Positions 15,790 to 45,394 of a DNA stretch of 61,697 bases are shown one piece after another (position 1 is the stretch's first letter; every line of letters starts with the position of its first letter). The stretch lies in the IMG/VR virus record IMGVR_UViG_3300002485_000002, positions 1 to 61,697 of that record. The stretch is one strand, 5' to 3'. The position numbers and the translations under genes are program-made. Origin of the DNA: a virus. Taxonomy: Duplodnaviria > Caudoviricetes. The notes under the pieces are model-generated. The model ran no database searches. It was given only the letters and a program-made list of their open reading frames with translations, and was not told the DNA's origin.

Positions 15790-16209
15790 CTACAGGTACT
15801 GATCCAGTAGTGCGATCATACGTTGACGACCCTGTTCAATCAGTTGCAAACGGTATTTTTTCTTGAACATTCCCTCTTCATCTTCAAGTGTCCAACCACC
15901 GATATAGAACTCATCCCCTGGCCGATACGGACCCTCTCCAGTTCCAGGCGTATTGACGTAGAAACACCGTCCGACTCTGCCATTCGGTAATCGTTCCAAT
16001 GCGGTCCATTGTCCACAAATGTGGCGAGAAGTTGATGCGCCTTTCCATCCTGTCCAACTAACCGGCATCCCCCTATAGACGAACACTGGCTCAGGCCAGT
16101 CGCACAATAAATCCTGCGGAATACAATCTGAACCCCATAGATCTACGATAGAGGCTAGATTTGCTGTCGCCAGTGCTGGCAACATCACAACAAGTGTTCT
16201 CCGCTTCAT
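15790..16209 (-). CDS. 139-aa protein with RR-hydrophobic leader and two capsid-like segments
   Basis: GGAGG RBS; TGWK-x9-GQ-xx-A and GPY-xx-G-x-EF-x-I match the MCP. Confidence 0.7.
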   Translation of the reverse strand: MKRRTLVVMLPALATANLASIVDLWGSDCIPQDLLCDWPEPVFVYRGMPVSWTGWKGASTSRHICGQWTALERLPNGRVGRCFYVNTPGTGEGPYRPGDEFYIGGWTLEDEEGMFKKKYRLQLIEQGRQRMIALLDQYL

Positions 16210-16213
16210 GGCC

Positions 16214-16627
16214 TTATCCTCCGAGATAGCCCTGCAACGCCCGCGTGACGATTTCCTCGATGGCGTCCTCCAACGGCTTGCGCCCGGCGGCGTACTTAAT
16301 CTTCTGAAGCAAGTCGGGCTTGATGTGGACAGGCTTACCGTCGAGCTTGATGGTGTTAGCGCGGCGCAGAAACTCAACTACGTGACCGCCGCTAGGGAAG
16401 TTGCGGCCAAGCAGCTTCTCAAGCTCCCGGCGTCGTTCATCGTTGAAATAGAGCGATCGGCCATCGTCATGGGACCAGCAGGAACGCAGGCGGGCGACGA
16501 TGGCGGCTTCAGTGGTCAGCCCGAGAGCGCGAGCCTGAGACTGATAGACCCGGTAGGTCTCCTCGGGAAGTTCGATCGACAGGACGATGGTGCGGGCGGG
16601 GGCGGACTGCACAGGGGCGGCTGCCAT
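16214..16627 (-). CDS. Putative ribbon-helix-helix-like DNA-binding protein
   Basis: VLSIELPEETYRVYQSQARALG and VHIKPDLLQKIKYAA segments. Confidence 0.5.
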   Translation of the reverse strand: MAAAPVQSAPARTIVLSIELPEETYRVYQSQARALGLTTEAAIVARLRSCWSHDDGRSLYFNDERRRELEKLLGRNFPSGGHVVEFLRRANTIKLDGKPVHIKPDLLQKIKYAAGRKPLEDAIEEIVTRALQGYLGG

Positions 16628-16636
16628 ACGGGAGAT

Positions 16637-16665
16637 ACAATACAGCAAGCCGGGGCGAGAGGCAA
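16637..16665 (-). promoter_or_regulatory. Promoter TTGCCT-17-TATTGT, near-leaderless
   Basis: Followed by ATCTCCCGT ATG; matches the 6273-6301 motif. Confidence 0.65.
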
Positions 16666-16673
16666 GATGGAGG

Positions 16674-17522
16674 TTAGCCCTCCGTCAGTTCCGAAAACCG
16701 CTCCTCCCACTCATCCCACATTTTAGCGGCTGAGATGTCGCTGGCCTGCCACGAGGGCACCTTCTCGCCCGCAAGGACCGGCTCCCGCTCGGTCTCTACT
16801 TCCATCGTCCAGTGGTGGCCAGCCCATAGGGTCAATAGGAGCGCCCGCAGGCGGTCATCGTGGGCGCCGTAGGCGGCCTTGGCCGACATCTTCACGGGAT
16901 CCATCTCGGCGCTGCGCATCTCCTCAATCAGCCACGGGCTGTTGATCGTAACGCGGTCACGATGTATGAACTTGGCCCCGCGTACCCATAGGTGAGTGAC
17001 CGACTTGGCGGTAGCGGTCCAGCCCAAAGCTCCAGTACGGCTCGGATGTGGGACCAAGGCATCGAGATAGGTCCAGACATATTGGTTGGTGTAGCCGAGC
17101 GTAATCATCTTACGCAGAGTCTGGAGACCAGGGCCGGGATAGACTTCGATGATCGAAAGGCACTGACCATCCTCGTTGGAGCCGCCGTAGAGACGCCCGA
17201 GGGCGTTGGCGACGATCCCGAGGTCCTCCGGGTCGATTGGGGCCGCATACTCGGCAACCTGCACGTCTGGTTCAGGCTCCTGGCCGATTCGCAGGACAGT
17301 GATCGCCCCGTTGTCAACGGTAATGTCATCCCGAGTGCGCAGCATACGGTCCCAATTGGGGATGCCCATGGTCGGGTCGATGCCCATAACGTAGGAGGCG
17401 CGTGGGCGCGGAGGTTCCCAGAGCCAGATAATGCCGCGAGGGTCGCGGTCGATTTCCCCAGCGTCGAGCGGAGAGAGAGTCTGAGTGGTTCCGATCGTAT
17501 AGGAGGTGGGTGTAGGCATCAT
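16674..17522 (-). CDS. terL: Terminase large subunit, stand-alone nuclease (RNase H-like) domain
   Basis: WEPP...YVMGIDP..G, QVAEY, IIEVY..G and HDDRL motifs; ATG at 17522 overlaps the upstream stop (ATGA). Confidence 0.85.
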   Translation of the reverse strand: MMPTPTSYTIGTTQTLSPLDAGEIDRDPRGIIWLWEPPRPRASYVMGIDPTMGIPNWDRMLRTRDDITVDNGAITVLRIGQEPEPDVQVAEYAAPIDPEDLGIVANALGRLYGGSNEDGQCLSIIEVYPGPGLQTLRKMITLGYTNQYVWTYLDALVPHPSRTGALGWTATAKSVTHLWVRGAKFIHRDRVTINSPWLIEEMRSAEMDPVKMSAKAAYGAHDDRLRALLLTLWAGHHWTMEVETEREPVLAGEKVPSWQASDISAAKMWDEWEERFSELTEG

Positions 17523-17731
17523 TTCCAAACAGTAGTTACGTAAGCTCCTGTTGGAGTATGATATTCTGTACCTTCCAGAACTACCCATTGCAGATTTGTT
17601 CCCGGACAGTTGGGTGAGAGTTCCGCATGGCTAACCATCAAGCAGCGTATCAGATCATCCGTCAACGCTCCATCTATTGCAGTACTACCCTCCTGTTTGC
17701 AATCCAGGCAACGCCACTTCTGTTTATCCAA
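17519..17731 (-). CDS. Small Zn-binding hypothetical protein between the terminase halves
   Basis: GGGGAGG RBS; CxxC...H...C. Confidence 0.6.
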   Translation of the reverse strand: MDKQKWRCLDCKQEGSTAIDGALTDDLIRCLMVSHAELSPNCPGTNLQWVVLEGTEYHTPTGAYVTTVWK

Positions 17732-17755
17732 TTTAGTAACCCTCCCTTTTAGGAG

Positions 17756-18004
17756 TCACGTCGCTGTATCATCGGCGGGACTATCTTCCCGCCTTTCACC
17801 ATCACGAGCCAAACGGTGACGATGTTTCAGCTTCTCAGCATCCAAGTGGGCTGCAAGTTCATTGGCTGCCTCAGTGAAACGGTTGCCTGCGGAGGCGGAG
17901 ATTGACACATTGGACCTGTCTGGACTATCAACATCATATTTTGGCTCAGACTTGAGAAAAGCCTCTCCCGTCTCTTCCAACATTTGATATGGTCCTTTTA
18001 TCAT
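17756..18004 (-). CDS. 82-aa protein resembling the portal N-terminus
   Basis: ATGA-coupled; GEAFLKSEPKY and NRFTEAANELAAHL align to portal residues 24-80. Confidence 0.7.
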   Translation of the reverse strand: MIKGPYQMLEETGEAFLKSEPKYDVDSPDRSNVSISASAGNRFTEAANELAAHLDAEKLKHRHRLARDGERREDSPADDTAT

Positions 18005-19239
18005 GATGCTCTCCGTATCAATTCATAGGGTACGCCCGCGCGCGCTCTCAAGTCCAGCCGCTCCATCAACTCGGCATCGAAGGCAGCCTGGCCGGAGTGC
18101 TGAAAACTTTCCTCGGGAGTGGCGCAATAATTCGTAAGGAAGATATTCAGCGTAGATGAACTTGGCCCCACGTGCCCATCGCCGTCGCCCTGCGCTGCTC
18201 TTCGAGTCGTCTCCCACCAATACATTTGCTCTGGTGAAGGACTGTAGCGATAACCAACCAGCCTTGGGCTGGTATCCTCAATCTTGCGAGCAGCCAGTAC
18301 GGTAGTTTCGAAGGGTCGCCAGTCAACAGGCGGATTGCGTCGATAGCGCTTCGGCTCAATATACCAGGGGGTGAAGCTATAGATCCAATCGACGCGGCGG
18401 CCTGCTCGGACAGCTTCACTAAAACTATGCCACCAGTTGCCTCGACCGTTTGCGGCGCTTTCCAAAAAAGCGAGGGTGTCGATCGACCGGGGCAAGGTCG
18501 GGAAGAAATCGTTCTCGATTGTCAGCGGATATTCCCAGGAGGCACATTCGGTAAGATGACCAGTCGGAAAGTTGCTTCCCTGCCCGATGCCAGTATGTTG
18601 AAGACCCTGCTGGTAAAGAATATGCGAATTGAGCCGATCAAAATGAAGATGTTGAGACTTCACATCAAAACCGATAGAAGGATGAAGAAACCAAGGAAGG
18701 TTGTCGAGAATTAACTTGTCGCGCCGGTAGAGTTCAAGGATCTTACCCTCACTGACGGAGGCGGCAAGCGAACGGGTATTCTTGTGAAACAGGACGCGGT
18801 GAAGCATTAGGGCGCGGGCCAACATCGTAGCTCCCAATTGGCGAGCTTTGTGACAGGCGATCCGAATACCGTCGGCTATTTTGGCACGGTCGAAGGAGTC
18901 CCACTGGGATTCTTCCGCCTGGCCGATGAGCTTGAGCATGATTTCCTGGGAAGCCCAGAAGGTCATCGGGCCGACGCCGCCTCCCATCTCGGGGTCAATG
19001 TCGATGGTGGCGTAGCGTTCGGCGAAGTAGCGGAAGTCGCACATCGACAACAGCACTTCGTTGATGCAGAACAGGCTCTCCTCGCGGGTCAGCGGACGCT
19101 TCAATCCCTTGTCAGTCACCAGCGAGTGAATCTCAAGAGCGCGGCCCTGCGACTCAGACGGGGCGTGTCGCTTGAGGCGGACTTTCGTTGCGCTCTCGAC
19201 CTGCTCAGTGCGGCGAAGGATGATCTTGTCGGAGTACAC
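18001..19239 (-). CDS. terL: Terminase large subunit, stand-alone ATPase domain
   Basis: KARQLGAT Walker A, HLTECASW Walker B, ESAANG motif III, FTPWY, YCATPEESF. Confidence 0.9.
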   Translation of the reverse strand: MYSDKIILRRTEQVESATKVRLKRHAPSESQGRALEIHSLVTDKGLKRPLTREESLFCINEVLLSMCDFRYFAERYATIDIDPEMGGGVGPMTFWASQEIMLKLIGQAEESQWDSFDRAKIADGIRIACHKARQLGATMLARALMLHRVLFHKNTRSLAASVSEGKILELYRRDKLILDNLPWFLHPSIGFDVKSQHLHFDRLNSHILYQQGLQHTGIGQGSNFPTGHLTECASWEYPLTIENDFFPTLPRSIDTLAFLESAANGRGNWWHSFSEAVRAGRRVDWIYSFTPWYIEPKRYRRNPPVDWRPFETTVLAARKIEDTSPRLVGYRYSPSPEQMYWWETTRRAAQGDGDGHVGPSSSTLNIFLTNYCATPEESFQHSGQAAFDAELMERLDLRARAGVPYELIRRAS

Positions 19240-19497
19240 TCAGTCCTTCAACTCAATCATATCCTTCAGCCTGAATCTCCGCTTACACTTCCAGCATGTC
19301 CCTACGCCGCCACTAGTTTCATTCGCGTCGTACCACTTTGTTGCAATAACCCCTCCTACTCCCCACCACATGCCGCGCCGCCCGTCTGGAAGTTCTACGA
19401 AATGGTTGCTATCCATGCCGTCGTCGGACAGATTGTACTCATCGTAGGGACAAAGAACAGGTATGCCATTGGCGGCATCGTCTTTCGTGGATTTCAT
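19240..19497 (-). CDS. Hypothetical protein
   Basis: ATGA-coupled; Cys pairs. Confidence 0.55.
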   Translation of the reverse strand: MKSTKDDAANGIPVLCPYDEYNLSDDGMDSNHFVELPDGRRGMWWGVGGVIATKWYDANETSGGVGTCWKCKRRFRLKDMIELKD

Positions 19498-19778
19498 TCC
19501 GTCTCCTGCCCCACCGGGCTGACGATGCCCTGCTTGCGACGCATCTCCTGACGCAACTGGGCTAGTTCGTCTACGTAGGTGATGGCGTCATCGTCAAACG
19601 GTAGAGCCTCTGGCGAGGGCTTGATGCCCAACAGCGCCGCCTCGACCAGGTTATACAGACGCCGCAGGCTCTCGTTAAGGACGCGAAGTTCGGCCAGCAT
19701 AGCCTGATTGATGACGTAAAACATCCCGAGCAGTGCCATACCAAAGAACAGCAGCAGAAACAGCGTGACGTACATCAT
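19494..19778 (-). CDS. Membrane-anchored hypothetical protein
   Basis: N-terminal transmembrane segment. Confidence 0.6.
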   Translation of the reverse strand: MMYVTLFLLLFFGMALLGMFYVINQAMLAELRVLNESLRRLYNLVEAALLGIKPSPEALPFDDDAITYVDELAQLRQEMRRKQGIVSPVGQETE

Positions 19779-20380
19779 GTTGGAATCTCCGGCTCGGCAG
19801 GGCGGCCCGGCCTGACCTGAACCATCTCGATGATCTTCTCCATGCCCTGATCGGGGCCGAAAGAGGCGGAGAAGGAGTTGAAGTTAGCGACCAGGGGGGC
19901 GTCGCCGGTGACCCCCAGCGCCTGCATCATTATGTGGCGGGATTCGAGGTCGCCGGGCTTCTGGATGACCCCATGACCCGAGCAGCGCGGGCAGAGCGAC
20001 TTCGACTTGCGGCTGAGTTTGCCCTTGCCCCGGCAAGTCGGGCACAGATCGGTGAAGGAGGCGGCATCGGAGGCGATGTTTTCCATCACCTTGGGAGCGA
20101 ACGTGGACATCGCCATCAGGCCCAAGTTGACCTGATGACGCCGCCAGACATCCTGAAGGTCGGTCAATGTGACGGCATGATGGCGGCAGAGCGTCACTAG
20201 CGTCATACGGGAGTTGCGCGGGTCGGTCATGGAGGTCTGCAAGTCACGGAACCGTTGCTCCTCCTGGAGAGCAAGGGCGGCGGTAAACTCCCCCAACGGG
20301 ACGTTATGAAAGAACTTGTGCATCGAGGCGTCGTAGCGGGGGTTGTCAGGGACCGGGCGATTGTCGAGGTCGCGTTTCAT
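19775..20380 (-). CDS. Probable terminase small subunit with CxxCxGxG zinc-finger insertion
   Basis: Upstream of terL; CPTCRGKG...CPRCSGHG; helical core. Confidence 0.5.
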   Translation of the reverse strand: MKRDLDNRPVPDNPRYDASMHKFFHNVPLGEFTAALALQEEQRFRDLQTSMTDPRNSRMTLVTLCRHHAVTLTDLQDVWRRHQVNLGLMAMSTFAPKVMENIASDAASFTDLCPTCRGKGKLSRKSKSLCPRCSGHGVIQKPGDLESRHIMMQALGVTGDAPLVANFNSFSASFGPDQGMEKIIEMVQVRPGRPAEPEIPT

Positions 20381-20601
20381 GTCACCTTCCGATCCACATT
20401 GGGGATTTCCAAACCTTCAAGAAGCGTCCAGTTGTCGATTAAGCCGACCCTGTGTAGCTGCATGTATAACATCATTCTCTCAATGTTGCTGATGGACAAA
20501 AGCGCCCCCGGAGCGATGTAGAACTGACGAAGGAGTTCTTGTGCTCGATCAAAGCGCGGAAGCGCTAAAATCGGAAGCGTCAACAGAAAACGACGGGTCA
20601 T
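20377..20601 (-). CDS. 74-aa protein: TRRFL leader fused to a copy of portal residues 528-584
   Basis: GGAGGAG RBS; 41/57 identical residues by manual alignment. Confidence 0.85.
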   Translation of the reverse strand: MTRRFLLTLPILALPRFDRAQELLRQFYIAPGALLSISNIERMMLYMQLHRVGLIDNWTLLEGLEIPNVDRKVT

Positions 20602-21326
20602 GTTATCTCCTCCGGGGCGGTGTTCCCAAATAAAGCATAGTACTCAGGCGAGGCTCCTGCAACGCCCCACTTCTTTCGAAAGTAAGCCCGGTTGCGGTCA
20701 GCCTGCTTTTGGATGGCATGGGCCTCAGCATCGGGAGCGGCTTTGAGAGTCTGACTGGCGTGGTGCAGGAATGGCAGATCGAGCGAACAGGCGGTGATGC
20801 CCGCACGATGCAGGCGCACGTGGTAATCCCAGTCCTCGCAAAAGGCGATCTTGAAGTTCTCATCAAATGGGCCGACGCGGTCCCAGGCAGAGCGCCGGAT
20901 GAGGAAACAAGAGAAGTCGGGATGGGGGCGTTTCAAGGCCGGGTCGGGAGGCAGGTACGGACTGCCGATCTTCTCTCGCTCTCTTACGCCGATTCCAGTA
21001 ACGAACTCCCCGCCATCTTCCACTAGTCGTCTATACGTATCGGGCCGAAGCTCTACGTCATTGTTCACCACCAAAACGTAGTCTTCGCTCTGTGCGAATA
21101 TCCACCGCAACCCGGCATTCCAAGATTCAGCCACTGATCGGGGCGGGCGGGAATGCCAGATACCAAGATCGGCTTCGGAATCATTCGGCAGCCATCGGCT
21201 GATGCCCTCGTCGCTGTTGTCTATCAACAGAATGAAGAGGTTGCCGATGTCCTGAGCATAGAAGCTGGCAAGAGCGGGGCGAGTAAGATGCAGGCTATTG
21301 CGGTGAGGACAGAGAATCCAGTTCAT
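20598..21326 (-). CDS. Glycosyltransferase, GT2 family
   Basis: LIDNS, WNAG, VVNNDV, VGPFDENF..FCEDWDY. Confidence 0.9.
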   Translation of the reverse strand: MNWILCPHRNSLHLTRPALASFYAQDIGNLFILLIDNSDEGISRWLPNDSEADLGIWHSRPPRSVAESWNAGLRWIFAQSEDYVLVVNNDVELRPDTYRRLVEDGGEFVTGIGVREREKIGSPYLPPDPALKRPHPDFSCFLIRRSAWDRVGPFDENFKIAFCEDWDYHVRLHRAGITACSLDLPFLHHASQTLKAAPDAEAHAIQKQADRNRAYFRKKWGVAGASPEYYALFGNTAPEEIT

Positions 21327-21339
21327 CGACATCCTCTTT

Positions 21340-21822
21340 TCACTGAAGAATTGCCGCCAACGCTGTGGTCTTTCCCCGCGTATACTCAACTTTTGCCATA
21401 GCGAGGGCTTGTTTATATTCATCCCACGTGTCTATGCCCTTATGATTAGCCAACGCTACGGCTCTCGCTTGTTCATACTTCACTTGTGCTGGAGCTATTG
21501 CACGGTAGTACTCCACCCACACTGGACTTACATCCTCTTGGGTTGCAACGGTCATCACCCAAAGGCAATCCCCCAAACCATTCGCATTGAGGATCACTGT
21601 CAAATTAATCGGCTCGTTGCATTGTACGGAGGTTAGTCCTCCCAGGATGCTGTCTAGATGCTCGGGGTTCGCATCTGGGGCCAAGCCGATCAAAAATAAC
21701 AAGCTAGCGAAGCGCTCAGATATGCACGCTAGGGACCAACCGCTGACAAAACCGGTGTCTGCCGCTGCCGCCACACAAGCGCGATGCTTGTTTATTAGGT
21801 TGATGGTTGTGGTCAGTGTCAT
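21340..21822 (-). CDS. Hypothetical phage protein
   Basis: MTLTTTINLI..H..C...EPI....IL..NGL.DCLW pattern common in phage accessory genes; AT-richer than flanks. Confidence 0.6.
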   Translation of the reverse strand: MTLTTTINLINKHRACVAAAADTGFVSGWSLACISERFASLLFLIGLAPDANPEHLDSILGGLTSVQCNEPINLTVILNANGLGDCLWVMTVATQEDVSPVWVEYYRAIAPAQVKYEQARAVALANHKGIDTWDEYKQALAMAKVEYTRGKTTALAAILQ

Positions 21823-22334
21823 TTCACGGCCTCCAGTGATAATACCCACCAATCCCGAGCGGCGCTCATGCCCGAAATCGCCCGCCAATCAAAGGGCTTG
21901 ATCTGCGCCCAACGAACGCAGTCATCGCCTGCTAGGGTAAGAGCCAGGCTTTGACGGCGAAAACCCCAACGGTGTCTGTCGCTTTCCAGCCCCTGGTAGG
22001 CCCCATACAGGTTGACGCAATAGATGTAGTCGTTGATCTGCCCGAGAATCCAGCGCTGAGCGAGTTGCCAGAGGTCGGGGACAAACACGAGCAGGCTGCC
22101 TCCAGGGGCGAGAACACGCCAACACTCTCGAATCAAGCCATCACCCTCACCGCAGCCAAAGTGTTCGAGGACATGATGCAGGCAGACGATTTCGGCGCTC
22201 CCGGTCGGGAAGGGCAGGACAGCGCCGTCAGCGAGCACGTCGGGAACCTGATCGGGCGGGCGAGAGACGAGGTCGATATTGGTCCAGCTTTCCCCGAAGC
22301 GGCGCTGACCGCTGCCGATGTTGAGTTTCAGCAT
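21819..22334 (-). CDS. SAM-dependent methyltransferase (type 11-like)
   Basis: LNIGSG, W.NID, HVLEHF, RVLAPGG. Confidence 0.9.
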   Translation of the reverse strand: MLKLNIGSGQRRFGESWTNIDLVSRPPDQVPDVLADGAVLPFPTGSAEIVCLHHVLEHFGCGEGDGLIRECWRVLAPGGSLLVFVPDLWQLAQRWILGQINDYIYCVNLYGAYQGLESDRHRWGFRRQSLALTLAGDDCVRWAQIKPFDWRAISGMSAARDWWVLSLEAVK

Positions 22335-22685
22335 CTACTCCTCTATTAGCTGCATCGCGTCTACATTCATCATCCGTTCGACCCGGTAATCGGTATTGGC
22401 AGCCCGGCTAAAGCGAGCAACCGCCTCGATGAAGGAGCCGCCCCTTGAGTACATTAGCGTCATAGACTGCGCTTCTCCTTGGACTAGCCATCGTGCTGCA
22501 CCCTCAGGAGCCTGCCGATTGTAACTGATACGTATTGCCCGATCTGGGTTTTGGATCAGCCAGCGGCGAATCCAGAAGATCGTTCGGGGGTTCATGCGCA
22601 ACTCCTGTTTCTGAGCAGGACATTCTCGGCGCCAACAGTTCCGAGCAAGCCAACGACGCATCAAAACGATGGTTTTGGAGTTCAC
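22335..22685 (-). CDS. Hypothetical protein with duplicated N-terminus
   Basis: MNSKTIVLMRRWL / MNPRTIFWIRRWL. Confidence 0.5.
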   Translation of the reverse strand: MNSKTIVLMRRWLARNCWRRECPAQKQELRMNPRTIFWIRRWLIQNPDRAIRISYNRQAPEGAARWLVQGEAQSMTLMYSRGGSFIEAVARFSRAANTDYRVERMMNVDAMQLIEE

Positions 22686-22912
22686 GTGCTCACCTCTTTG
22701 CCTACAAGTTCCCTAAGTTGCTCAAACTGGCCCGGCTCCAACTGGTCAATGTTGTAAACAACAAGTGGTGAGCCATCTAAATCCGTCGCACGTATCAGGA
22801 GTGCCATGATAGCCCACTTCTCCTTCATCGCTTTGCCAACAGCTTCCATCTGCCATGTAGATATTCTCCGCCTATCCCAAATCACGATTATGCGTTTTGA
22901 TTCTTGCGTCAT
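22682..22912 (-). CDS. Hypothetical protein
   Basis: Start and stop overlap the neighbouring genes. Confidence 0.55.
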   Translation of the reverse strand: MTQESKRIIVIWDRRRISTWQMEAVGKAMKEKWAIMALLIRATDLDGSPLVVYNIDQLEPGQFEQLRELVGKEVST

Positions 22913-23523
22913 ACGTGCTCCAGCAGAACGTTCTCCGCGTCCTGCATGACCAACTGAAAACCCGGCAGCATGGCCAGCAGTTCCGAGCGCACGGCCTGTC
23001 CCTCGTACATCTCGCACTCATAGGCTTCCATGTAGAGCCAGTGGGTACGGGCCAAGGTCTTTCGACCGCCCTCGATCATGTCGCGCTCGGCTCCCTGGAT
23101 GTCAGCCCATAAGAGATGAATTGGGCCAATGGGTAGTTCCCGCCCTGCAAGTTTATCTAATGTAACGCAGGGTACCTCGATAGTTTGGTCGAATCGGCAC
23201 CAGGGCCAGTGCTCCTGATGCAAGAGCGGCTGCCGGATTGAACTAGAAGCAGGAACCACACCAACATCGTTGTCGCTTAGGTGTAGGGTAATCATGCCCG
23301 TGTAGGATGCGATTGCAGCCTCCACCATCTGAAACCCCCATATTTGGCGTAGCAAGGGATAGTGGCGTGGATCGGCCTCAACGGCAAGATATTTGGGCGC
23401 TCCAGAGCACAGACTCCGCAACCAGACTGTATCATTCCCCCGATGAGCGCCTAACTCAATCACCGTAGGATCGGGGATAGTCCGTAGGATGTCGGCAATC
23501 CGCTCCCTCACTGCTGCCCCCAT
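22909..23523 (-). CDS. FkbM-family methyltransferase
   Basis: ELGAHRG, EADP, VTLD, ADIQGAE..IEG, YEGQ. Confidence 0.9.
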   Translation of the reverse strand: MGAAVRERIADILRTIPDPTVIELGAHRGNDTVWLRSLCSGAPKYLAVEADPRHYPLLRQIWGFQMVEAAIASYTGMITLHLSDNDVGVVPASSSIRQPLLHQEHWPWCRFDQTIEVPCVTLDKLAGRELPIGPIHLLWADIQGAERDMIEGGRKTLARTHWLYMEAYECEMYEGQAVRSELLAMLPGFQLVMQDAENVLLEHV

Positions 23524-24173
23524 TTTTCTGCGAAGATTCGCGCACCTTCGGCGGTATCAGCCGTTCCCTTTCGCATGTAGGTGTTCATACAGGGCGAATG
23601 GAAACCGTGTTTGACGATTACGTCGGCTATGAGCAGGTTCCAGCCTACTCGGCGGATACGTTCGCAATAGTCGAAGTCGTCATGCCCGTAGCTGGTGAAC
23701 TGTTCGTCCCACCCGCCAATCAGGTCGATGATCGCCCGGCGAATGTAGATCAAAATGAAAGCGAGCCTGGTAGCAGTAATAGCCCAGTAACGGTAGTCCG
23801 CTTTCACGACTTGCTGTTCTACGATTCCGCAGCCTCCGTCAATTCGGGGAGAAACGACCGCGATCTTGGAGCGCATATATGCGGCGTCTTGTAGTCGCTT
23901 AACCGTATCTGGAGTGATAAACTGCGTGTCGTCGGACGCCATTAGAACGTCAGCCCTACCGGCCGCCAGCAGCCCCAAGTTGATGTTACGAGGCATGACG
24001 TAGGGCTGCGGGCCTTCGACCACTGCCCAATCTGACGGAGGTTCGATCGCCGGGCCGTCGCGGACCAGGATTTTGCGACAGAAGGTGTCCGGCTCGTACT
24101 GCTGCTGTGAACACAGGAACTGAGCGAAGATGTCCGGGTAGCAGGCTGGAACGACTAAGGCTACCTCTCGCAT
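23508..24173 (-). CDS. Glycosyltransferase, GT2 family
   Basis: NLG, SDD, IGGWDEQF..YGHDDFDY. Confidence 0.85.
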   Translation of the reverse strand: MREVALVVPACYPDIFAQFLCSQQQYEPDTFCRKILVRDGPAIEPPSDWAVVEGPQPYVMPRNINLGLLAAGRADVLMASDDTQFITPDTVKRLQDAAYMRSKIAVVSPRIDGGCGIVEQQVVKADYRYWAITATRLAFILIYIRRAIIDLIGGWDEQFTSYGHDDFDYCERIRRVGWNLLIADVIVKHGFHSPCMNTYMRKGTADTAEGARIFAEKWGQQ

Positions 24174-25105
24174 AGGCCTATCCTCTGAAAGATTTCATTA
24201 AACCGGCGCTCATAGGTGTGATCCCGCAGGCAGCGCTCGTAGCCACGACGGGCGATGGCCATTCGTTCGCTGCTGTGGGCAAGATAGTAGCGAACCTTAT
24301 CCACTAGATCGCCTAGCCCCTCAAACACACCAATCTCTTTGCCGAGTTCAAAGTAGTCGCCCAAGTTATCGGCTACATTCGTCAGGAGGAACCCTCCGCA
24401 GGAGGGAACCTCGAAGTTCCGCCCCTTGATCTGACGACAGCCCGGCTGGGCAGCCTCAGCGAAGTTCAGGTTGATCTTGCTACTGCCGAAAACGCGGATC
24501 ATATCCTCCTGGGTGAGCCTGCCGTTTCCATGATTCGGACCCCAGACTTGAACATTGATGCCCGCGTCTCGAAGCGCGTTGAGATAGAGATGGCGATCCC
24601 CATGCGAGCGTCCGACAAAAGTTACAGAGTGCTCCCAATCCCTATCCCTCTCGTAGAGGATAGGGTTCGCTCCCCACTGGCTCTTGATGACATTCGTGTA
24701 GCCGATGGAGGCGTACTTGGCCGGAGCCTCGCTGGCGGTAGTGACGATCCAGTTGAAGCACGGCGCCCACTGACAGGAGAAGCTGTCCCACCGCCAGTGG
24801 TCGTCGCAGAACCAATGAAGCGTGGTGGTGAGGCCGCTGTCGGAAATCCGCCGCATGGTCTCGCGGCTGACCTCGTCGTACATGAAACAGGCGAACAGCA
24901 AATCGGGTCGTTCGTCTTTGACAAGCTGTTCCAGATCGCGGTTCATCGCCTCGTTCCCTTGTCGGCGAGAGTTCTGGAAGTAGTCGAAGTAGATGATCCT
25001 GTGTCCCATCTGCCGCAGGGAATCGTAGAAGTTGTAGTGCTCGAAGCTGCGCCCGGCGGTCGGATCGCCGTAGTCCCACTCGTTAGCTACGTAGAGAATG
25101 TTCAT
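24161..25105 (-). CDS. CgeB-like GT-B glycosyltransferase
   Basis: WFCDD, FVG...R, SKINLN, KGRNFEV..CGGFLL, HTYERR. Confidence 0.88.
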   Translation of the reverse strand: MNILYVANEWDYGDPTAGRSFEHYNFYDSLRQMGHRIIYFDYFQNSRRQGNEAMNRDLEQLVKDERPDLLFACFMYDEVSRETMRRISDSGLTTTLHWFCDDHWRWDSFSCQWAPCFNWIVTTASEAPAKYASIGYTNVIKSQWGANPILYERDRDWEHSVTFVGRSHGDRHLYLNALRDAGINVQVWGPNHGNGRLTQEDMIRVFGSSKINLNFAEAAQPGCRQIKGRNFEVPSCGGFLLTNVADNLGDYFELGKEIGVFEGLGDLVDKVRYYLAHSSERMAIARRGYERCLRDHTYERRFNEIFQRIGLCER

Positions 25106-25338
25106 GACTTGTTCGCTTGAATCGCCTCAGGCATCAACTGAAGTCCTAGACCTACGCCCATAGCGTGCTTCTCGGCACGCTCCAGCGCCATGAGAATGGC
25201 ATCGATCTGATATGACGTTAGTTTCAGCGTCATGCCGTTCTTTAGGACTACTATCCCGCCTCGTGAACCTTCGCTATCCTGTATCGCCACCACCTCATCC
25301 AGATTCACGTAAATGTCCCTATCTCGGTATATCATCAT
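25102..25338 (-). CDS. Hypothetical protein
   Basis: Tightly coupled ORF; C-terminus weakly similar to the portal tail. Confidence 0.55.
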   Translation of the reverse strand: MMIYRDRDIYVNLDEVVAIQDSEGSRGGIVVLKNGMTLKLTSYQIDAILMALERAEKHAMGVGLGLQLMPEAIQANKS

Positions 25339-26058
25339 TCACTCCATCACCACTCCCGCCACTCTCGCCATCGCCTCATGCCCCACTGCTTTCTCCCCAA
25401 AGCTACTGGTCAACCCTGCGTTATGCACCACATGTGGATGCACCGCACCCACCTTGAATCCTGCCCCTCTGATCCTCTGTGTGTACTCCCAGTCTTCCGA
25501 CTTGGCCACCCCCACAACTTTGGCATCCAGCATCCCGAACCTGTCCCACGTCTGCCACTCCATCAACCAACTCAGCCCGCCGACCGTGTAGTATTCGCGG
25601 ATCTCGCCGTGCGGATAAGGGGTAACGGGCGCGGGTCGGCCCACCTCTATACCCTCGATGGCGTGGTAAGGATGGTTATATCCCCCAAGAATCCTGTAGC
25701 CCTCCACGCATGCTGCGGGCCACGCGACCAGCAGCCTCTCCAACCATCCGGGGGTGAAGTAGGCGTCGTTGTCGCTCATGTAGAGCAAATCCCCCCGGCT
25801 CCAATACAGTTCCGCCGCCCGGATGCCGAGATTGCGTACCAGCCCGACGATGCCCTTGGAGCGAGATAAGCGGACAATGACAGTATCATCACGCCCGGTA
25901 GTCGTCAGATCGAGGACGCCCCGAGTCTGGAGTTGTGAGCCATCATCAACAACAGTTAGACTGAATGAACCGCGCTCGGTGTGGGCGTAGAGCGAAGACA
26001 GCGCCTGCTCGGTAAGGCGAGGGCGATCCTTGACTAGCATGACGATGTTGACGGTCAT
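25339..26058 (-). CDS. Glycosyltransferase, GT2 family
   Basis: VVDDGS, RNLG, SDNDAYF..GWL, SEDWEY. Confidence 0.9.
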   Translation of the reverse strand: MTVNIVMLVKDRPRLTEQALSSLYAHTERGSFSLTVVDDGSQLQTRGVLDLTTTGRDDTVIVRLSRSKGIVGLVRNLGIRAAELYWSRGDLLYMSDNDAYFTPGWLERLLVAWPAACVEGYRILGGYNHPYHAIEGIEVGRPAPVTPYPHGEIREYYTVGGLSWLMEWQTWDRFGMLDAKVVGVAKSEDWEYTQRIRGAGFKVGAVHPHVVHNAGLTSSFGEKAVGHEAMARVAGVVME

Positions 26059-26400
26059 TCAAGGACTCCGCCTATTCAAGTAAGCGCAATGCAGAAACTC
26101 AACATAGTAGCGGAGATCAGCCACTGACCGCTCCAGCTCATCAAGGCGCTTGACAAGTTCCTCAAAGCGCTTGAGTATTTCACAAATATCATGCACCGAA
26201 TGCTCTAGTCCCTCAATGCGATCGCGTAACACACGTATGTCTGCATCCAGGTAGAGGAGATCCTGGCGTCTATCAAGCTCGTTTTGAGGTCCAGCGTGCA
26301 TCATAGGTCCGTGACCGTGTGGACACAGCGCCCCACCGTACCTCATTGGGGCTGTTGCCCCGCATACCAAGCAGACATCGTAAGCAGCTTGATTCGTCAT
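26059..26400 (-). CDS. Zn-ribbon plus coiled-coil hypothetical protein
   Basis: CxxCGAT...C..GHG.M, also present in 43438-43728. Confidence 0.55.
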   Translation of the reverse strand: MTNQAAYDVCLVCGATAPMRYGGALCPHGHGPMMHAGPQNELDRRQDLLYLDADIRVLRDRIEGLEHSVHDICEILKRFEELVKRLDELERSVADLRYYVEFLHCAYLNRRSP

Positions 26401-26448
26401 ATCAGTTTGTTCTTCATCACGACCGACAGTCCCTTCATGTAGGGGCTT

Positions 26449-26586
26449 TCATGGCAACTTGACTCCGTTCACGACCAGAAAAGCCTTGATCCAAGGGAAT
26501 CCGACCTTCAGGAACCATGTGAAAACGAGATAGAGCGCAAATAACTCGATTATCACAACCGTCCAAAACCAAGTACGTTCGCTCAT
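26449..26586 (-). CDS. Small membrane protein (45 aa, not in ORF track)
   Basis: GGAGGTGA RBS; MSERTWFWTVVIIELFALYLVFTWFLKVGF... Confidence 0.5.
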   Translation of the reverse strand: MSERTWFWTVVIIELFALYLVFTWFLKVGFPWIKAFLVVNGVKLP

Positions 26587-27290
26587 GCCCTCACCTCCCA
26601 CGGCAACACATCCCGCATCTCATCCCACAGCCATCGGTGAGCGTCCGCGTGTGTCTGCTCATCGGTCAACCCGCGCTCCCGAAGCCAGTCTTGGTAGGCA
26701 GGCTTGGTAGAAGTCTGCCCGCCTTTGTGCAGGCACGAGACGCCGACCATGCGGATGCGATAGCCCTGACGGCGGGCGACACCGCAGAGCCAGTAGTCGT
26801 AATTATGGAAGATCAACTTGTGAACCGGCCACCCAGCCCACTGCTTCATCCCGTCCTGGTGCCACGCTCTCTCCAGGATCACCCGGCGAACAATCAGAGC
26901 GAAGCCATCAAGCACGGCCACGTCGCACGCGCCGGTGAATCGCTGGCCGTGCTGTTCGGCGTCTGTAGTATTCGAGAGGTATCCGTAGCGAGCGAGGTTC
27001 TGCAAGCGGTAGGGCGAGCGGTAAAGGTCGGGGCTGCCATGTCGCAAAGCGCCGCCGAAACCGATGAGGCCGACCGAAGGATCGGAAAACTCGGCCAGCA
27101 CACGCTCGGGCCAATCAGGATCGTAAATCTCCACGTCGTTATGCAGGTAAGCCAGAATGTCGGCCTTAGCTACCTCAAGTAACTCTTGGTACATAGCAAC
27201 CACCGACCCGACTCCCGTTACAAAGTACCGATCATCTCCAGGCCCGCTAACAGGTTCGGAAGGACAGGCCATGCAGACTGTCATGGTCAC
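26583..27290 (-). CDS. Glycosyltransferase, GT2-like
   Basis: YLHNDV, G.IG..G, AVLDG, FHNYDYW.C. Confidence 0.85.
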   Translation of the reverse strand: MTMTVCMACPSEPVSGPGDDRYFVTGVGSVVAMYQELLEVAKADILAYLHNDVEIYDPDWPERVLAEFSDPSVGLIGFGGALRHGSPDLYRSPYRLQNLARYGYLSNTTDAEQHGQRFTGACDVAVLDGFALIVRRVILERAWHQDGMKQWAGWPVHKLIFHNYDYWLCGVARRQGYRIRMVGVSCLHKGGQTSTKPAYQDWLRERGLTDEQTHADAHRWLWDEMRDVLPWEVRA

Positions 27291-39206: not shown

Positions 39207-39213
39207 CGAGTTT

Positions 39214-39576: not shown

Positions 39577-39605
39577 GAGGTTCTTATGCCAAAGGAGGCT
39601 AGAAA

Positions 39606-42023: not shown

Positions 42024-42415
42024 CGCGGACTGAAATCACCCTCGACGACCTGATTCTGCTGGCTGAGGCGTGCGGCCTGAAGCGCGTGGATACAATGCCG
42101 GAGGTCTGGGCCGGCTCAGATGTGTACTTAGTAGACCGCGGCGGTAAGGCGATCTATATTCGGGATCAGCACGGACGTCCGGCAGAACAGGCATGGAACC
42201 CCTACACTTCTTTCAGCGATGCCGGGATGCTGATGCGGGCGTTGGGGATCGACTTGATCCTTCACATGCATGGAAATACTCCGTACTGGGAAGCAAGCGG
42301 TTCGTGGTATCTGAATGAGTCTAACGTAGCGGGGCGCGGTGACGGCAACACCAAAGCCGCCCAGTGCGAAGCGATCTGCCGGGCGGCGCTCCAGATTGTG
42401 GGGGCGAAGGGATGA
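42020..42415 (+). CDS. NinX-like protein
   Basis: LAEA.G...WNPYTS.SDA..L...AICRAAL. Confidence 0.65.
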   Translation: MTRTEITLDDLILLAEACGLKRVDTMPEVWAGSDVYLVDRGGKAIYIRDQHGRPAEQAWNPYTSFSDAGMLMRALGIDLILHMHGNTPYWEASGSWYLNESNVAGRGDGNTKAAQCEAICRAALQIVGAKG

Positions 42416-44090
42416 AACGGAGGGCACATGATGTTCTGTGAAATCTGCGGGAAGCCGCCCGACTTTCGATATGTCACCGCGACAGGCGAACCAATCGGCA
42501 CTCCACGTAACTGGACACAGAGCTGGGCGCAAGGCAAAGGCGCCGGCTACCACGTCGGATGTATGGCGGAGCGCTACGATCAAATGCGGGAAGCGCTGGA
42601 GGCGTTTTGCTGGGCCACTCGCGCCGATCCTGCTCTGCATCCCACATGGGATATTCTACTCGAAGCCGGGGTTGCCGCCCTCGCCACCGTGAGGGCGAAA
42701 GGATGATACTGCAAATCGGCCAGCACGGCGTTGCTTTCAATCGCTACCAGATTTTCTTTTTCGGCGCACCGGCGAGATGGAAACTATGCGGGTGGATCGC
42801 ACGGTTCTGGATTCCGAAAAAATACCGGAAGCTCTGTATCGGAGAGTTTCTTACTAGTGCGGGGCGTATACCGTCACTGACCGCTGAGGAACGCGCAGCA
42901 AAGTTTTTCTTCGGGCATGATCCAAGATCATGACCACAACCCTGTTCATCGACGGCATGACCACATGGCTGCTGTGCATGGGTGCTCTGTGCGCAGTGTT
43001 TGCCCTGTTCGGGCTGGCGGATGAAGCGGCAGTGCGGTGGTGGAAGCGGAGGCACCTATGAACTTCTGGCCCTTCCGCTGCCGCCACGCTCATCTTCAGT
43101 TCCCGCGCCGCCAACCTGACGGGCGCGACTGGCAGTACTGCCCGGACTGCCACAAGCGAATCCTGAGCACGACGCAGTTCCAAGTACCGACGCCGGTGCG
43201 CCGTCCGGGGAATGTTACCATCGAGAAGACGGGGCTGGAACGGATGGGGAGGCTACATGGTTGAAGCCGTCGCTTTAGCGGTGAAGGCTATCGCCGAGAT
43301 GGTTACCGAGATCGTCAAGGGCCAGCCCCCGGAGCTGAAGGCCAAGATGTGGGAGTGGTACGTCAAGGACATGGAGACGTGGAGGAAGTTCTGGGGAGTG
43401 GACAAGTAGCTGGTATGCCAGTGGGAAGGATAGCCTAATGAGCACACACGAGGTAAAAACTTCCGCAATCTGCATTGATTGTGGCGCTACAGTAGCTATA
43501 CCAGATGAAGAATATGTTTACGGTAGTCAGGCTTATTGCCTCAATGGACATGGCGTGATGTTTCTAGTTCACGACTGTAAATTCTGTGGAAAAGAGTTGG
43601 CATATACCATTGGGGACCCTTATGAATCCGTGGAAGAGATAGTTTGCTCGGACTGCGTGGCAAAAGTGCGTCAGAAAGCCCTTGATACGAGAATCCAGCG
43701 AGCCCGTCACGAGTCCGCGTCTGGTTGAACCGCGCATACGGAAGGAGAATCCACTGGAGAGAATGTTCCACGTGCCACAATGAAGCCTGCGGCATCAAGA
43801 CTGCGGAAGGGGAAAAGCACCAAAGCCCTGCCCTTGTCTGGTTGGCTTACCGAGATTGACAACCCCGAGTTTGAGGATTTCTCTCTCCTAAGTTTAGAGG
43901 ATCACAGGCAGGTAGCAGAACTCATGAGTAAAACGGGGAAAGGCACCAAGGCCCGACCCTCCCCTGATGAGAAACGCACAAGAAACAGGCCCTGGTCTCG
44001 CGCGGGCGCTAAGCGCGACCGCCGTTACGGAGGGCGAGTGAAGGTAAGGGACGTGCTGACGATATGGCCGGGGTCTCAAGGGAGCTGAAG

Positions 44091-44375
44091 ATGGCAAAAA
44101 CAGCGCCGGTTGTGGAGGAAACAACCTACCTGGTGGGAACCCGTCAGGTCGCCCAGGCATTGAAGGTCACCCAGCGCCGCGTGCAGCAGATGATCGGCAG
44201 CGGGCAGTTGCATGCCTACGGGTGCGCAGGACGCTGGTTGATTGATCCTCGCCAGTTGACCGACCCTAAGATCAGGCACCGGGGTCGAGGCCGACCGCGT
44301 AAAGATCGTAAGGTGCAGATCGCGCCCCGACCAGGGCCAGTTCCAGCTCCAATGATCCGGGCTGAGGAGGATTAG
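44091..44375 (+). CDS. HTH_17-like DNA-binding protein, paralog of 36476-36670
   Basis: T.QVA..L.VT.RRVQQ.I..GQL.A...GRWLI; GRPRK. Confidence 0.75.
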   Translation: MAKTAPVVEETTYLVGTRQVAQALKVTQRRVQQMIGSGQLHAYGCAGRWLIDPRQLTDPKIRHRGRGRPRKDRKVQIAPRPGPVPAPMIRAEED

Positions 44376-44378
44376 CCA

Positions 44379-44804
44379 GTGACGAGCCTGAGTATTATGT
44401 TCGATGAAATCATGGCGGTTATCCCTGAAACAGTCGGGGTGGTCATGTTTCGTCTGCCAAGCCCGAATAAGTGGGATGCCGAGAAGGCTGGCATGTGGTG
44501 CGCTGGTTTCATTGCATGCGGTGACTATATAACCAGAGATACTCTTGATTGCGGACTATATCCATACGGCGAGGGGTCAACCATTACGGAGGCGTTAGGG
44601 GCATTGAAAAAACTGATAGAGAAAATGAAAGAGCCGCCATTAGTTCATCTGAGAGGAGCGGCTATGTGTGAATGCGGGCACGATCTAGAGCATCACGATG
44701 CAAGGGATGAAGGCCGGGGCGCCTGCCTGAAATGTGCTTGTAGCGAATACGTTGAGGCAGCGTTCATTGACGCCAGTCGCGGCTATCACTGGCCCGAAGA
44801 GTAG
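44379..44804 (+). CDS. Hypothetical protein with C-terminal CxCGH...H...CxxCxC
   Basis: GAGGAGG RBS. Confidence 0.6.
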   Translation: MTSLSIMFDEIMAVIPETVGVVMFRLPSPNKWDAEKAGMWCAGFIACGDYITRDTLDCGLYPYGEGSTITEALGALKKLIEKMKEPPLVHLRGAAMCECGHDLEHHDARDEGRGACLKCACSEYVEAAFIDASRGYHWPEE

Positions 44805-45103
44805 ACCCCGTCTTATCCCGGAGCATTTTAGGAATCTCCGCTTGCGGCTATCGCCCAGACCCACGGCGCGCGCGTACTACAGGCCGCCTTGTGCAGGGCC
44901 AAAACTACCAGGACCCCACCTACACTACGCCTGTAGTTCTGAGATTGCAAGACTTTCCTCCGGGACCTCTGCGTCCCCCAGTGGGTGCTCCGTTTGCCTC
45001 GCATGGTCGTAGGCCGCCAGCAGAGAGGGAAACCGCTCGTTACAGACCCGGCAGTGCCATATCAGCGGCTGCTCTTGTCGCTGCTCTCTCTGACTCCATC
45101 GCA

Positions 45104-45394
45104 TCAGAGCTCCAAAAGACGGTCTTCCCAGTTGTTCGGTGGATGACCTTGCGCGTGGGCAGGCCAATATGCCTTTACCAGAGCCTGGCGTGGTCCAAGA
45201 GATGGGTCGCAGAGTACCCTGGCCGCCCTGAATACGGGCTTCTCATTGCTGTCTGTGGCATAGAATAGTGCACGACTCTCTCTCATCGTTTGCATCAGAT
45301 CCTCGAAAGCTGCCTTGCCCATCCTGATTTCCTTCGGCTCTATGTTTCCAAGGGTCAAATGGTTGTAAGCGTCGCTGAGAAGATCGATGTTCAT
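45104..45394 (-). CDS. 96-aa protein resembling the capsid A-domain
   Basis: L...Y...T.GNIEP and F..A.V align to MCP residues ~191-260. Confidence 0.6.
   Translation of the reverse strand: MNIDLLSDAYNHLTLGNIEPKEIRMGKAAFEDLMQTMRESRALFYATDSNEKPVFRAARVLCDPSLGPRQALVKAYWPAHAQGHPPNNWEDRLLEL

Follow-up and report, generated by a model that had tools for sequence, protein, structure and literature searches.

Small genes related to parts of the resident portal gene in the packaging module of a soil phage

Does a phage keep small genes made from pieces of its own virion proteins, and what might such genes do? The question is raised by the complete 61.7-kb genome of a metagenomic soil phage (61,697 nt, in the following called the window), in which an earlier note had read five short genes as a dispersed panel of portal and capsid fragments, possibly decoys for host immune sensors. 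We compared each claimed fragment by blastp with every six-frame ORF of the window that is 40 amino acids or longer (934 in total), aligned the five candidates with three targets each by Smith-Waterman (SW; 15 tests, 500 shuffles per pair) and applied hhalign. Two of the five genes are portal-derived, one of them probably so, and three are unrelated orphan genes. The idea that this phage keeps small genes from its own portal thus stands for two genes and falls for the other three, and the five-gene fragment or decoy panel falls with them. The features are listed in Table 1.

Table 1 Positions of the portal gene, the two mini-genes and other features within the window
Feature	Coordinates	Strand	Length	Remarks
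Portal protein, parent gene	13474..15366	(-)	630 aa	phrog_156, E 3e-7
Portal codons 512-584, source of crown mini-gene	13615..13833	(-)		C-terminal helices
Portal codons 12-80, probable source of N-terminal mini-gene	15127..15333	(-)		N-terminal helices
Orphan gene	15790..16209	(-)	139 aa	signal-peptide-like N-terminus; between two core genes; not capsid-derived
Large terminase, second half	16674..17588	(-)	304 aa	matches residues 448-718 of the 722-aa ORF of L020
N-terminal mini-gene	17756..18004	(-)	82 aa	probable distant copy of portal 12-80
Large terminase, first half (ATPase part)	18001..19239	(-)	412 aa	phrog_5989, E 2.5e-4
Conserved Zn-finger gene	19775..20380	(-)		weak DnaJ-type CXXCXGXG; Pfam DnaJ_CXXCXGXG E 3e-5, below cut-off
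Crown mini-gene	20377..20601	(-)	74 aa	RR-hydrophobic N-terminus, then copy of portal ~512-584
Glycosyltransferase-rich island	20598..28462	(-)		ends at crown mini-gene
Orphan gene	25102..25338	(-)	78 aa	inside glycosyltransferase island; not portal-derived
Orphan ORF	45104..45394	(-)	96 aa from ATG, 154 aa from GTG at 45568	not capsid-derived

The clearest case is the crown mini-gene, which had been aligned by eye with portal residues 528-584. BlastP confirmed this assignment with 41 of 58 residues identical (71%, E 2.2e-22). The SW score of 198 lay far above the maximum of 49 in 500 shuffles, and a full portal HMM recovered the protein with an E-value of 1.8e-19, which places it in the portal family. 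Its nearest relative is the portal of its own phage, with 71% identity compared to at most 62% for 76 other portals, and the tree split joining the two against the rest had a support of 81.

The copy is old and has been under purifying selection. Mini-gene and source segment share 66% of their DNA and 71% of their protein sequence; over 55 codons pS is saturated at 0.81 and pN is 0.166, and the resulting pN/pS of 0.20 (bootstrap 0.10-0.36) is not the value near 1 that a decaying duplicate would give. The reading frame is intact. In a set of 49 distinct crown segments from portals, certain R, L and D positions are invariant and certain P, G, Q, L, R, T and N positions nearly so, and the crown copy keeps them. 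Since the split, 12 amino-acid changes fell on the mini-gene branch and one on the portal branch. Ten of 60 aligned residues occur in none of the 49 portals (median for a real portal, 1), and therefore the gene is no fresh capture from a working portal. The protein is identical on 14 contigs, and one 96% variant, P0002, has lost an Arg that is invariant in the 49 portals. Judged from these substitutions, the crown copy appears to follow a constraint unlike the portal's own; its rapid amino-acid change and shift toward AT would also fit weak constraint.

The gene is tightly embedded. A strong Shine-Dalgarno sequence, GGAGGAG, lies 6 nt upstream of its ATG, and ATGA overlaps connect it to both flanking genes, in line with the RBS or translational coupling previously described for the claimed fragments. 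The reported AT-richness was likewise seen for both mini-genes and the 139-aa orphan gene (GC 0.49–0.50 vs 0.56–0.62 in the flanks; 0.49 in the orphan gene), and their GC3 is 0.43–0.59 compared to 0.64–0.81. A scan of 15300-21500 for one promoter type, sigma-70-like, gave no sites (shuffle mean 2.8).

Directly upstream of the conserved Zn-finger gene, which has homologs in 29 ORFs of relatives, the crown mini-gene occupies a variable slot. Relatives L075, L005 and L041 hold small membrane or Tat-like proteins there. In L020, whose portal is 54% identical, a crown-like ORF lies at the same position. Its leader is of the RRGFL type, and it shares portal segment and C-terminal end with the copy in the window. 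It matches the L020 portal with an E-value of 3e-11 and shows a GC3 of 0.49 (flanks 0.72–0.84) and a pN/pS of 0.45. L021 is 98–99% identical to L020 across the genome, and the sole swap between the two is a 373-bp slot cassette, in which L021 has other DNA in place of the crown copy. Because L021 lost or never had it, the crown copy is dispensable. A tree keeps the copies of the window and L020 apart with weak support, so we do not claim a common origin for them. Among 83 relatives scanned, the window and L020 were the only carriers, and 77 further loci, some of them the same contigs, yielded none. With two carriers in roughly 150 related loci, the crown copy is very rare.

Leaders with RR and a hydrophobic stretch had been noted for the crown mini-gene and the 139-aa orphan gene. 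The stretches themselves are present (TRRFLL... in the crown copy of the window, NRRGFLSL... in that of L020, KRRTLVV... in the orphan gene), but a Tat assignment did not follow. The models PF10518 and TIGR01409 did not match either protein of the window at E ≤ 10, the L020 leader stayed below threshold (PF10518, 12.7 bits; cut-off 22.7), and the L075 slot protein reached 15.6 against Tat signal models with a cut-off of 16.7. In the window, the hydrophobic part of the crown leader is only ~10 residues long, and a clear cleavage site is absent. This leader may simply be altered portal sequence; in some portals, the residues preceding the crown align weakly with it.

The N-terminal mini-gene, located between the two terminase halves, is a more distant relative with an 11-residue deletion relative to portal 12-80. 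Its proposed correspondence to portal residues 24-80 is probable. BlastP gave 26% identity over 54 amino acids (E 0.004), and none of 500 shuffles reached its SW score against the portal (Gumbel p 5e-5). With a profile built from the portal N-termini of three relatives, leaving out the window's own portal, the ORF ranked second of 934 behind the portal (E 0.0042; next E 2.2). Across such profile searches of the 934 ORFs its E-values were 0.002–0.004, which puts it in the portal family, and when its small family was aligned with that of the portal by hhalign, the probability was 92.6% and the E-value 4.6e-7 over portal 12-80. A full-length portal profile searched against ~20,000 ORFs did not retrieve it at E 1. 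With E-values between 1e-3 and 1e-7, we regard its homology to the portal as probable. The N-terminal piece recurs as well: P0003 is a 97% relative, and P0005, with 70% identity over the shared part, has the deletion in common with it and retains more of the portal motif.

The remaining three claimed fragments are, by their alignments, chance resemblances, both supposed capsid pieces included. For the 139-aa orphan gene, described as permuted capsid pieces, the top non-self blastp hit was a non-capsid ORF (E 0.85) and the SW alignment with the capsid gave p 0.03, uncorrected for 15 tests. The 7/11 capsid match reported before exists and was reached in 3 of 200 shuffles for this one target. No protein family was found for this gene, which is absent from the 83 relatives, where its two neighbors have 48 and 62 hits. 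The ORF at 45104, taken for capsid 191-260, gave an SW p of 0.015, again uncorrected for 15 tests, and its best capsid 11-mer was equaled in 173 of 200 shuffles. A profile of 30 capsid sequences retrieved neither gene at E ≤ 20; for both, identity as a fragment of an HK97-type major capsid protein was rejected, as there was no significant capsid similarity. The 78-aa orphan gene, read as a portal tail, had an SW p of 0.11.

An AlphaFold model of the parent portal (pLDDT 76, pTM 0.71) matched podophage portals best (Pan3, Pa223, SU10, N4, T7; E down to 3e-15), suggesting a podophage-like fold. Within the source segment of the crown mini-gene the model has helices at 519-524, 529-538, 549-566 and 572-579, and within that of the N-terminal mini-gene at 10-30, 35-46 and 64-77. 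Of the 630 portal residues, the mini-proteins span only model helices 519-579 and 10-77. They resemble the portals of SU10, Pan3, N4 and T7 at the crown and N-terminal helices and differ in lacking clip, stem, tunnel loop and most of the wing; neither comprises the complete fold of clip, stem, wing and crown that forms a 12-mer channel.

Given portal ancestry, age, selection against amino-acid change, embedding as genes and recurrence in one slot, we consider it likely that both mini-genes encode functional, selected portal-derived proteins. Each would be an old partial copy of the portal gene that selection retained as a stand-alone, microprotein-like product. The crown copy retains the core helices of the crown, its N-terminus has turned into RR plus a hydrophobic stretch, and the N-terminal copy would retain three N-terminal helices. 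Both genes are AT-shifted, lie in cargo slots of the packaging module that vary between relatives, and are read with the late operon through ATGA coupling. Presuming that the proteins are produced and have a binding partner, they may compete with or replace the matching portal surface toward a portal-binding protein; that they are such portal-domain mimics seems to us almost an even chance.

Several known systems are partly similar. Known microproteins and dominant-negative fragments come from eukaryotes and their retroviruses; examples are plant LITTLE ZIPPER, ID-type proteins and Gag-derived Fv1. The mini-proteins are likewise small, each derives from one interaction domain of a bigger, oligomeric protein and, by analogy, they would act through unproductive binding. 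Morons are accessory genes inserted between core genes in phage late operons; classic ones are foreign, have their own promoter and terminator and encode small products, often with membrane or export signals. The mini-genes also encode small proteins, lie between core genes that adjoin or flank other cargo in relatives and differ from their flanks in base composition. Unlike morons, they come from the phage's own portal gene, are ATGA-coupled to their neighbors and showed no promoter and terminator of their own, as far as the scan for sigma-70-like sites goes. HK97 gp15 is a superinfection-exclusion protein encoded in the structural module and thought to act on the entry of incoming DNA. By analogy, the crown copy is possibly also a small membrane-directed protein from the virion gene block, but gp15-type proteins are not copies of virion proteins. 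SaPI Ccm and T4 gp24, compared to gp23, are structural-protein paralogs that redirect assembly. The mini-genes are also virion-protein copies with a putative new role, yet Ccm and gp24 are full-length or whole-domain proteins built into capsids, whereas the mini-proteins correspond to 55-70 of 630 residues and cannot form a portal.

For the crown copy, our preferred version of mimicry is a membrane- or periplasm-directed protein, exported or anchored by its leader. By binding the internal core (ejection) proteins that dock on the podophage crown, it would impede related superinfecting phages in bringing in their DNA. The portal fold of the window is podophage-like, and the podophage ejectosome sits on the crown of the portal and is reassembled in the periplasm (PMC11440229). 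This exported, entry-blocking version is rather unlikely as it stands. We also give a low probability to a broader form, in which portal-derived microproteins make up a so far undescribed class of phage accessory genes and a false crown traps the ejection proteins of kin. The crown leader, which would direct the protein to the membrane or periplasm, would then have evolved out of portal sequence, and the N-terminal copy would have a cytoplasmic role at contacts of the portal or scaffold. Closeness to the resident portal would be selected, since the phage would be targeting its own kin.

If the mimic reading is true, phages can excise a single interaction domain from a core virion protein and turn it into a regulator or weapon, and short ORFs matching part of a structural protein of their own genome would provide a search rule for accessory functions. 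Eukaryotic microproteins and Gag-derived restriction factors are established products of this route, and the literature searched contained no case of a portal-derived microprotein in phages. For now, the trait is a curiosity from which a testable idea follows rather than a widespread system.

The pieces could instead be functionless scars of rearrangement or cassette exchange in hot-spot slots, whose frames would have stayed open by chance, or thanks to their small size and a position squeezed between coupled genes. Both mini-genes lie exactly where relatives hold unrelated cargo, the L020/L021 swap indicates fast turnover, and the rarity of the trait, the 12:1 acceleration with novel residues at conserved portal sites, the missing invariant Arg in P0002 and the AT shift all suit this view. 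We nevertheless judge it unlikely. Despite saturation at synonymous sites, the crown copy still has its frame, the invariant core and 71% of the residues. The two crown copies have pN/pS values of 0.20 and 0.45, and a 74-codon frame would hardly outlast such divergence without constraint. In addition, two phages with 54% identical portals share segment, ends and leader type, and the crown mini-gene has a strong RBS.

Alternatively, the proteins might help head assembly by nucleating the resident portal ring, tethering it to the membrane or timing its formation, and so would serve the phage's own portal instead of opposing other phages. In favor of this, the crown copy is closest to the resident portal, both genes are coupled into the late packaging operon beside terminase and portal, the adjoining Zn-finger gene has a DnaJ-type motif, and portal initiation is membrane-associated in T4. 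An assembly factor should be conserved, however, whereas about 150 relatives lack the crown copy, L021 among them despite its 98% identity to L020, and this role appears improbable.

That the fragments titrate or blind portal-detecting host sensors such as Avs4 or Avs11 is very unlikely. In favor of it, the portal is a known trigger of both (PMC13581612), the pieces keep conserved portal residues, and an accessory slot with fast turnover suits conflict genes, but no sequence links the mini-genes to any sensor, the Avs sensors described in PMC13581612 bind extended interfaces of whole folds while the pieces have 55-70 residues, a sensor-binding fragment might equally trigger the sensor, an export-like leader would take the crown copy out of the cytoplasm, the supposed capsid members are not real, the trait is very rare among relatives, and the full-text literature searched held no phage-encoded portal decoy. 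The other proposal of the earlier note, that the fragments work as mimics or dominant negatives in assembly or against competing phages, would be the better fit.

Two observations concern the surroundings of the mini-genes. The glycosyltransferase-rich island has no counterpart in the complete relative G002. The terminase is indeed split, as described before, and its two halves form a single ORF in three relatives (L020, L021 and L056).

The late packaging operon of this phage has cargo slots that hold two ORFs derived from the portal gene, one of them clearly selected; a relative offers a parallel. The record is complete (61,697 bp, with direct terminal repeats), has a GC content near 58-60% and, up to about 36.4 kb, has its genes mostly on the minus strand. 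The nearest named phages are two Tunturiibacter phages, with a portal identity of just 23%; megablast of the region 13000-26000 against phage records gave no match, and the DNA is held by soil and sediment metagenomes (15 soil or sediment runs listed, none of them of RNA). As relatives we gathered four viral loci, the complete 64-kb genome G002, 80 metagenome loci and 77 further IMG/VR loci, with some contigs shared between the sets. The main capsid ORF is 55-69% identical to ORFs of many relatives over at least 300 residues. The AlphaFold model of the portal (pLDDT 76, pTM 0.71) has its best structural matches in the solved podophage portals of Pan3, Pa223, SU10, N4 and T7 (E down to 3e-15). 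Searching the PDB by sequence with the portal profile and with ORF 6310-7518 gave no match.

Coordinates of the features discussed in the window
Feature	Position	Strand	Length	Assignment
Main capsid ORF	2868-3875			phrog_9953, E 1e-7
Capsid interruption	3816-4648	-		
Capsid N-terminal ORF	4466-4648		60 aa	
Repeat-containing stretch	10495-12354			
Portal	13474-15366		630 aa	phrog_156, E 3e-7
Gene 15790	15790-16209		139 aa	likened to capsid in the earlier note
Split terminase	16674-19239		412 aa + 304 aa	
N-terminal mini-gene	17756-18004	-	82 aa	likened to portal residues 12-80
Zn-finger gene	19775-20380	-		
Crown mini-gene	20377-20601	-	74 aa	likened to portal residues ~512-584
Upstream island	20598-28462			
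Glycosyltransferase gene	20598-21422			clear; within island
Glycosyltransferase gene	24161-25105			clear; within island
Gene 25102	25102-25338			likened to portal tail in the earlier note
Glycosyltransferase gene	27287-28462			clear; within island
Gene 45104	45104-45394			likened to capsid in the earlier note
Repeat-containing stretch	46353-46931			
Repeat-containing stretch	53225-54694			

The earlier note had read five short genes as fragments of the phage's own portal and capsid. We compared them by blastp with all 934 six-frame ORFs of the window of at least 40 aa and by Smith-Waterman alignment with 500 shuffles for each of 15 pairs; the capsid segments that had been cited all fall inside the capsid ORF tested. 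Two of the five alignments held and three did not, so that the observation was partly confirmed, and its interpretation is likewise partly supported. The crown mini-gene matches portal residues 527-584 with 71% identity (E 2.2e-22; score 198, the best shuffle reaching 49), and the N-terminal mini-gene probably derives from the portal as well, matching residues 23-76 with 26% identity (E 0.004; 0 of 500 shuffles; p 5e-5). The best non-self matches of the other three were at E 0.85 for gene 15790, 1.1 for gene 45104 and 0.26 for gene 25102, with uncorrected p values of 0.03 and 0.015 against the capsid and 0.11 against the portal, respectively. A 30-sequence capsid profile matched neither of the two supposed capsid pieces at E <= 20. 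The match of 7 of 11 residues between gene 15790 and the capsid is present, but was equalled by 3 of 200 shuffles against that single target, and the best 11-mer of gene 45104 was equalled by 173 of 200. Searches of Pfam, PHROG and NCBIfam returned nothing useful for any of the five. The AT shift noticed for gene 15790 and both mini-genes is real, with GC of 0.49-0.50 and GC3 of 0.43-0.59 against 0.56-0.62 and 0.64-0.81 in their neighbours. We rejected the idea that the two portal pieces are collinear remains of one second portal gene, because the upstream piece is the C-terminal one.

The crown copy shares just 66% DNA identity with the corresponding portal segment. In an alignment of 55 codons, differences affect 32 of about 40 synonymous sites (pS 0.81, saturated) and 21 of about 125 non-synonymous sites (pN 0.166). 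The dN/dS comparison with the parent segment that the earlier note had proposed thus gives a pN/pS of 0.20 (bootstrap range 0.10-0.36). Using two relatives as outgroup assigns 12 changes to the branch of the mini-gene and 1 to that of the portal, leaves 4 ambiguous and shows 10 states exclusive to the crown copy and its own portal. None of 76 other portals is closer to the crown copy than its own portal (at most 62%), and a tree of 51 crown segments places the two side by side with a support of 81. The crown copy agrees with its own portal at 41 of 60 aligned positions; at 9 more its residue, though different, is seen in some portal, and at the last 10 it is absent from all of 49 distinct portals, where a real portal has a median of 1 such unseen residue. 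The positions invariant in all 49 are retained. Saturated synonymous sites rule out a fresh duplication and the 10 novel residues a recent capture from another working portal. Together with the low pN/pS and the proximity to the own portal, these comparisons of sequence therefore argue for a long-kept portal fragment under its own, looser constraint.

The crown mini-gene overlaps both of its neighbours. Its ATG, preceded at 6 nt by GGAGGAG, overlaps the stop codon of the upstream glycosyltransferase gene (ATGA), and its own stop overlaps the ATG of the Zn-finger gene downstream; a scan of 15300-21500 found no sigma-70-like promoter. Queried with the crown copy, a "longer" homologue search gave no scoring match, and pattern scans found nothing in viral or metagenome contigs. 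Low-depth contigs derived from reads of four runs listed no difference within either mini-gene and 8 elsewhere, all from run X11; a joint from 19382 to 21192 (side 20) in these contigs was taken as spurious.

When 83 relatives were scanned, each with its own portal and with a 60-sequence portal HMM, one clear extra portal piece appeared, in locus L020 (E 3.4e-11 and 3.4e-10), and a marginal one in L038 (BLAST 4e-5, HMM 0.6). The 77 further IMG/VR loci added none, their sole row, L121 (HMM E 0.6), being the contig of L038. The L020 piece covers the same portal segment with the same end as the crown copy of the window. Its N-terminus is a hydrophobic leader of the RRGFL type, and the gene directly downstream is the Zn-finger homologue of L020, so that it occupies the same slot. 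It is AT-shifted (GC3 0.49 against 0.72-0.84) and has a pN/pS of 0.45 with saturated pS. Locus L021 is 97-99% identical to L020 on both flanks of this slot, which holds 373 bp in L020 (8833-9205) and 322 bp of unrelated DNA in L021 (5216-5537), a clean cassette swap. Other relatives carry unrelated small ORFs there, several with membrane or Tat-like N-termini: the small protein of L075 is Tat-like, and those of L005 and L041 are membrane proteins. The 51-segment tree does not join the crown copies of the window and L020 (supports there 38-55); they may share a single origin with spread or have arisen twice.

Tat models did not match the crown copy of the window or gene 15790, and scored the L020 copy and the L075 slot protein just below their cut-offs. 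The leader of the window copy aligns weakly with the stretch before the crown in some portals, for instance that of L028; instead of a signal acquired by capture, it may be modified portal sequence. Because of these unmatched or sub-threshold models and this possible origin of the leader, we regard export of the crown copy as a lead, not a finding.

For the N-terminal mini-gene, a profile of the portal N-termini of three relatives, with the own portal excluded, ranked its ORF second among 934, after the portal itself (E 0.0042; next E 2.2); adding the own portal improved this to E 0.0017. Exhaustive searches recovered two small relatives of the protein, P0003 (97%) and P0005 (70% over the shared part), the latter having the same 11-residue deletion and retaining more of the portal motif upstream. 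By hhalign, this small family matched four portals over portal residues 12-80 with 92.6% probability (E 4.6e-7). Because a full-length portal profile searched against about 20,000 ORFs nevertheless left this ORF short of E 1, we consider its portal origin probable, not certain. A 2209-aa repeat protein, P0006, which also came up with the N-terminal mini-protein as query, was set aside as a composition-driven match. Another library protein, P0004 (468 aa), is built from 8 units of about 58 aa in tandem. Every unit has a Met start and an LEETGEGF motif resembling the start of the N-terminal mini-protein (E 1e-11), which gives P0004 the look of mini-gene-like units joined head to tail.

The N-terminal mini-gene, with GGAGAG upstream, and the end of the first terminase half overlap in the same ATGA fashion. 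The flanking ORFs are indeed two halves of one terminase-like protein, as the earlier note had it. They form a single ORF in L020 (4751-6898), L021 and L056, are adjacent in many relatives, and in further ones are separated by as much as about 3.5 kb, which leaves space for other cargo; the gap in G002 (44267-48175) holds a glycosyltransferase/methyltransferase ORF.

On the portal model, helices 519-579 are the counterpart of the crown piece and helices 10-77 that of the N-terminal piece. Our preferred reading is that the mini-proteins would act as mimics of a portal surface. According to PMC11440229, the internal core (ejectosome) of podophages sits on the portal crown in contact with the C-terminal helices of the portal, and afterwards forms a channel anew in the periplasm. 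In this phage, 9109-12375 and 55248-58634 encode large candidate internal proteins. A mimic of the crown that carries an export-like leader could capture core proteins of incoming kin and thereby keep related phages from entering. Co-folding of portal residues 440-630 with the crown mini-protein scored 0.00, which weighs neither for nor against binding. Alternatively, the fragments might be assembly helpers, or scars. The proposal that they are immune decoys is weakened, since the pieces are small relative to the extended sensor interfaces described in PMC13581612 and the capsid members of the supposed panel failed.

Among known systems, mimics of the portal surface would come nearest in concept to microproteins or dominant-negative fragments. 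Both mini-genes resemble morons in placement and composition but, unlike these, are home-made and lack a sigma-70-like promoter of their own; structural paralogues such as SaPI Ccm are alike in principle only. Full-text literature searches listed no portal-derived small gene, which does not exclude a published case.

No homologue of the N-terminal mini-gene or of genes 15790, 25102 or 45104 turned up in the 83 loci, where the core neighbours of gene 15790 have 48 and 62 matches. Gene 15790 (GC 0.49) is an orphan insertion: in relatives, its two flanking core genes are direct neighbours. It has a signal-peptide-like start (KRR, a hydrophobic run and an A-x-A-like site) and likely encodes an exported accessory protein; the ESM Atlas offered only scores under 0.9 and TM under 0.4.

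The major capsid gene is interrupted, its main ORF resuming about 650 nt after an N-terminal ORF that matches the capsid profile (E 2e-18) and is 75% identical to the capsid start of L024. Within the gap lies a 197-aa ORF whose LAGLIDADG match is sub-threshold (E 0.001). The intervening stretch is not an intein, since a stop and a change of frame mark its ends, and Rfam detected no group I intron at gathering or E <= 1. In L036 (16060-17944), the capsid gene is split too: its two parts, matching query residues 21-210 and 212-335, have about 740 nt between them. As this is a different place from that in the window, capsid genes of the clade seem to have been invaded repeatedly.

The island directly upstream of the packaging genes includes at least three clear glycosyltransferase genes, together with weaker paralogues, and has no counterpart in the complete relative G002. 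An all-against-all comparison further revealed internal amino-acid repeats in three stretches, probably repeats inside a 1088-aa protein and two other genes, the strongest, at 46353-46931, reaching up to 67% identity over 63 aa.
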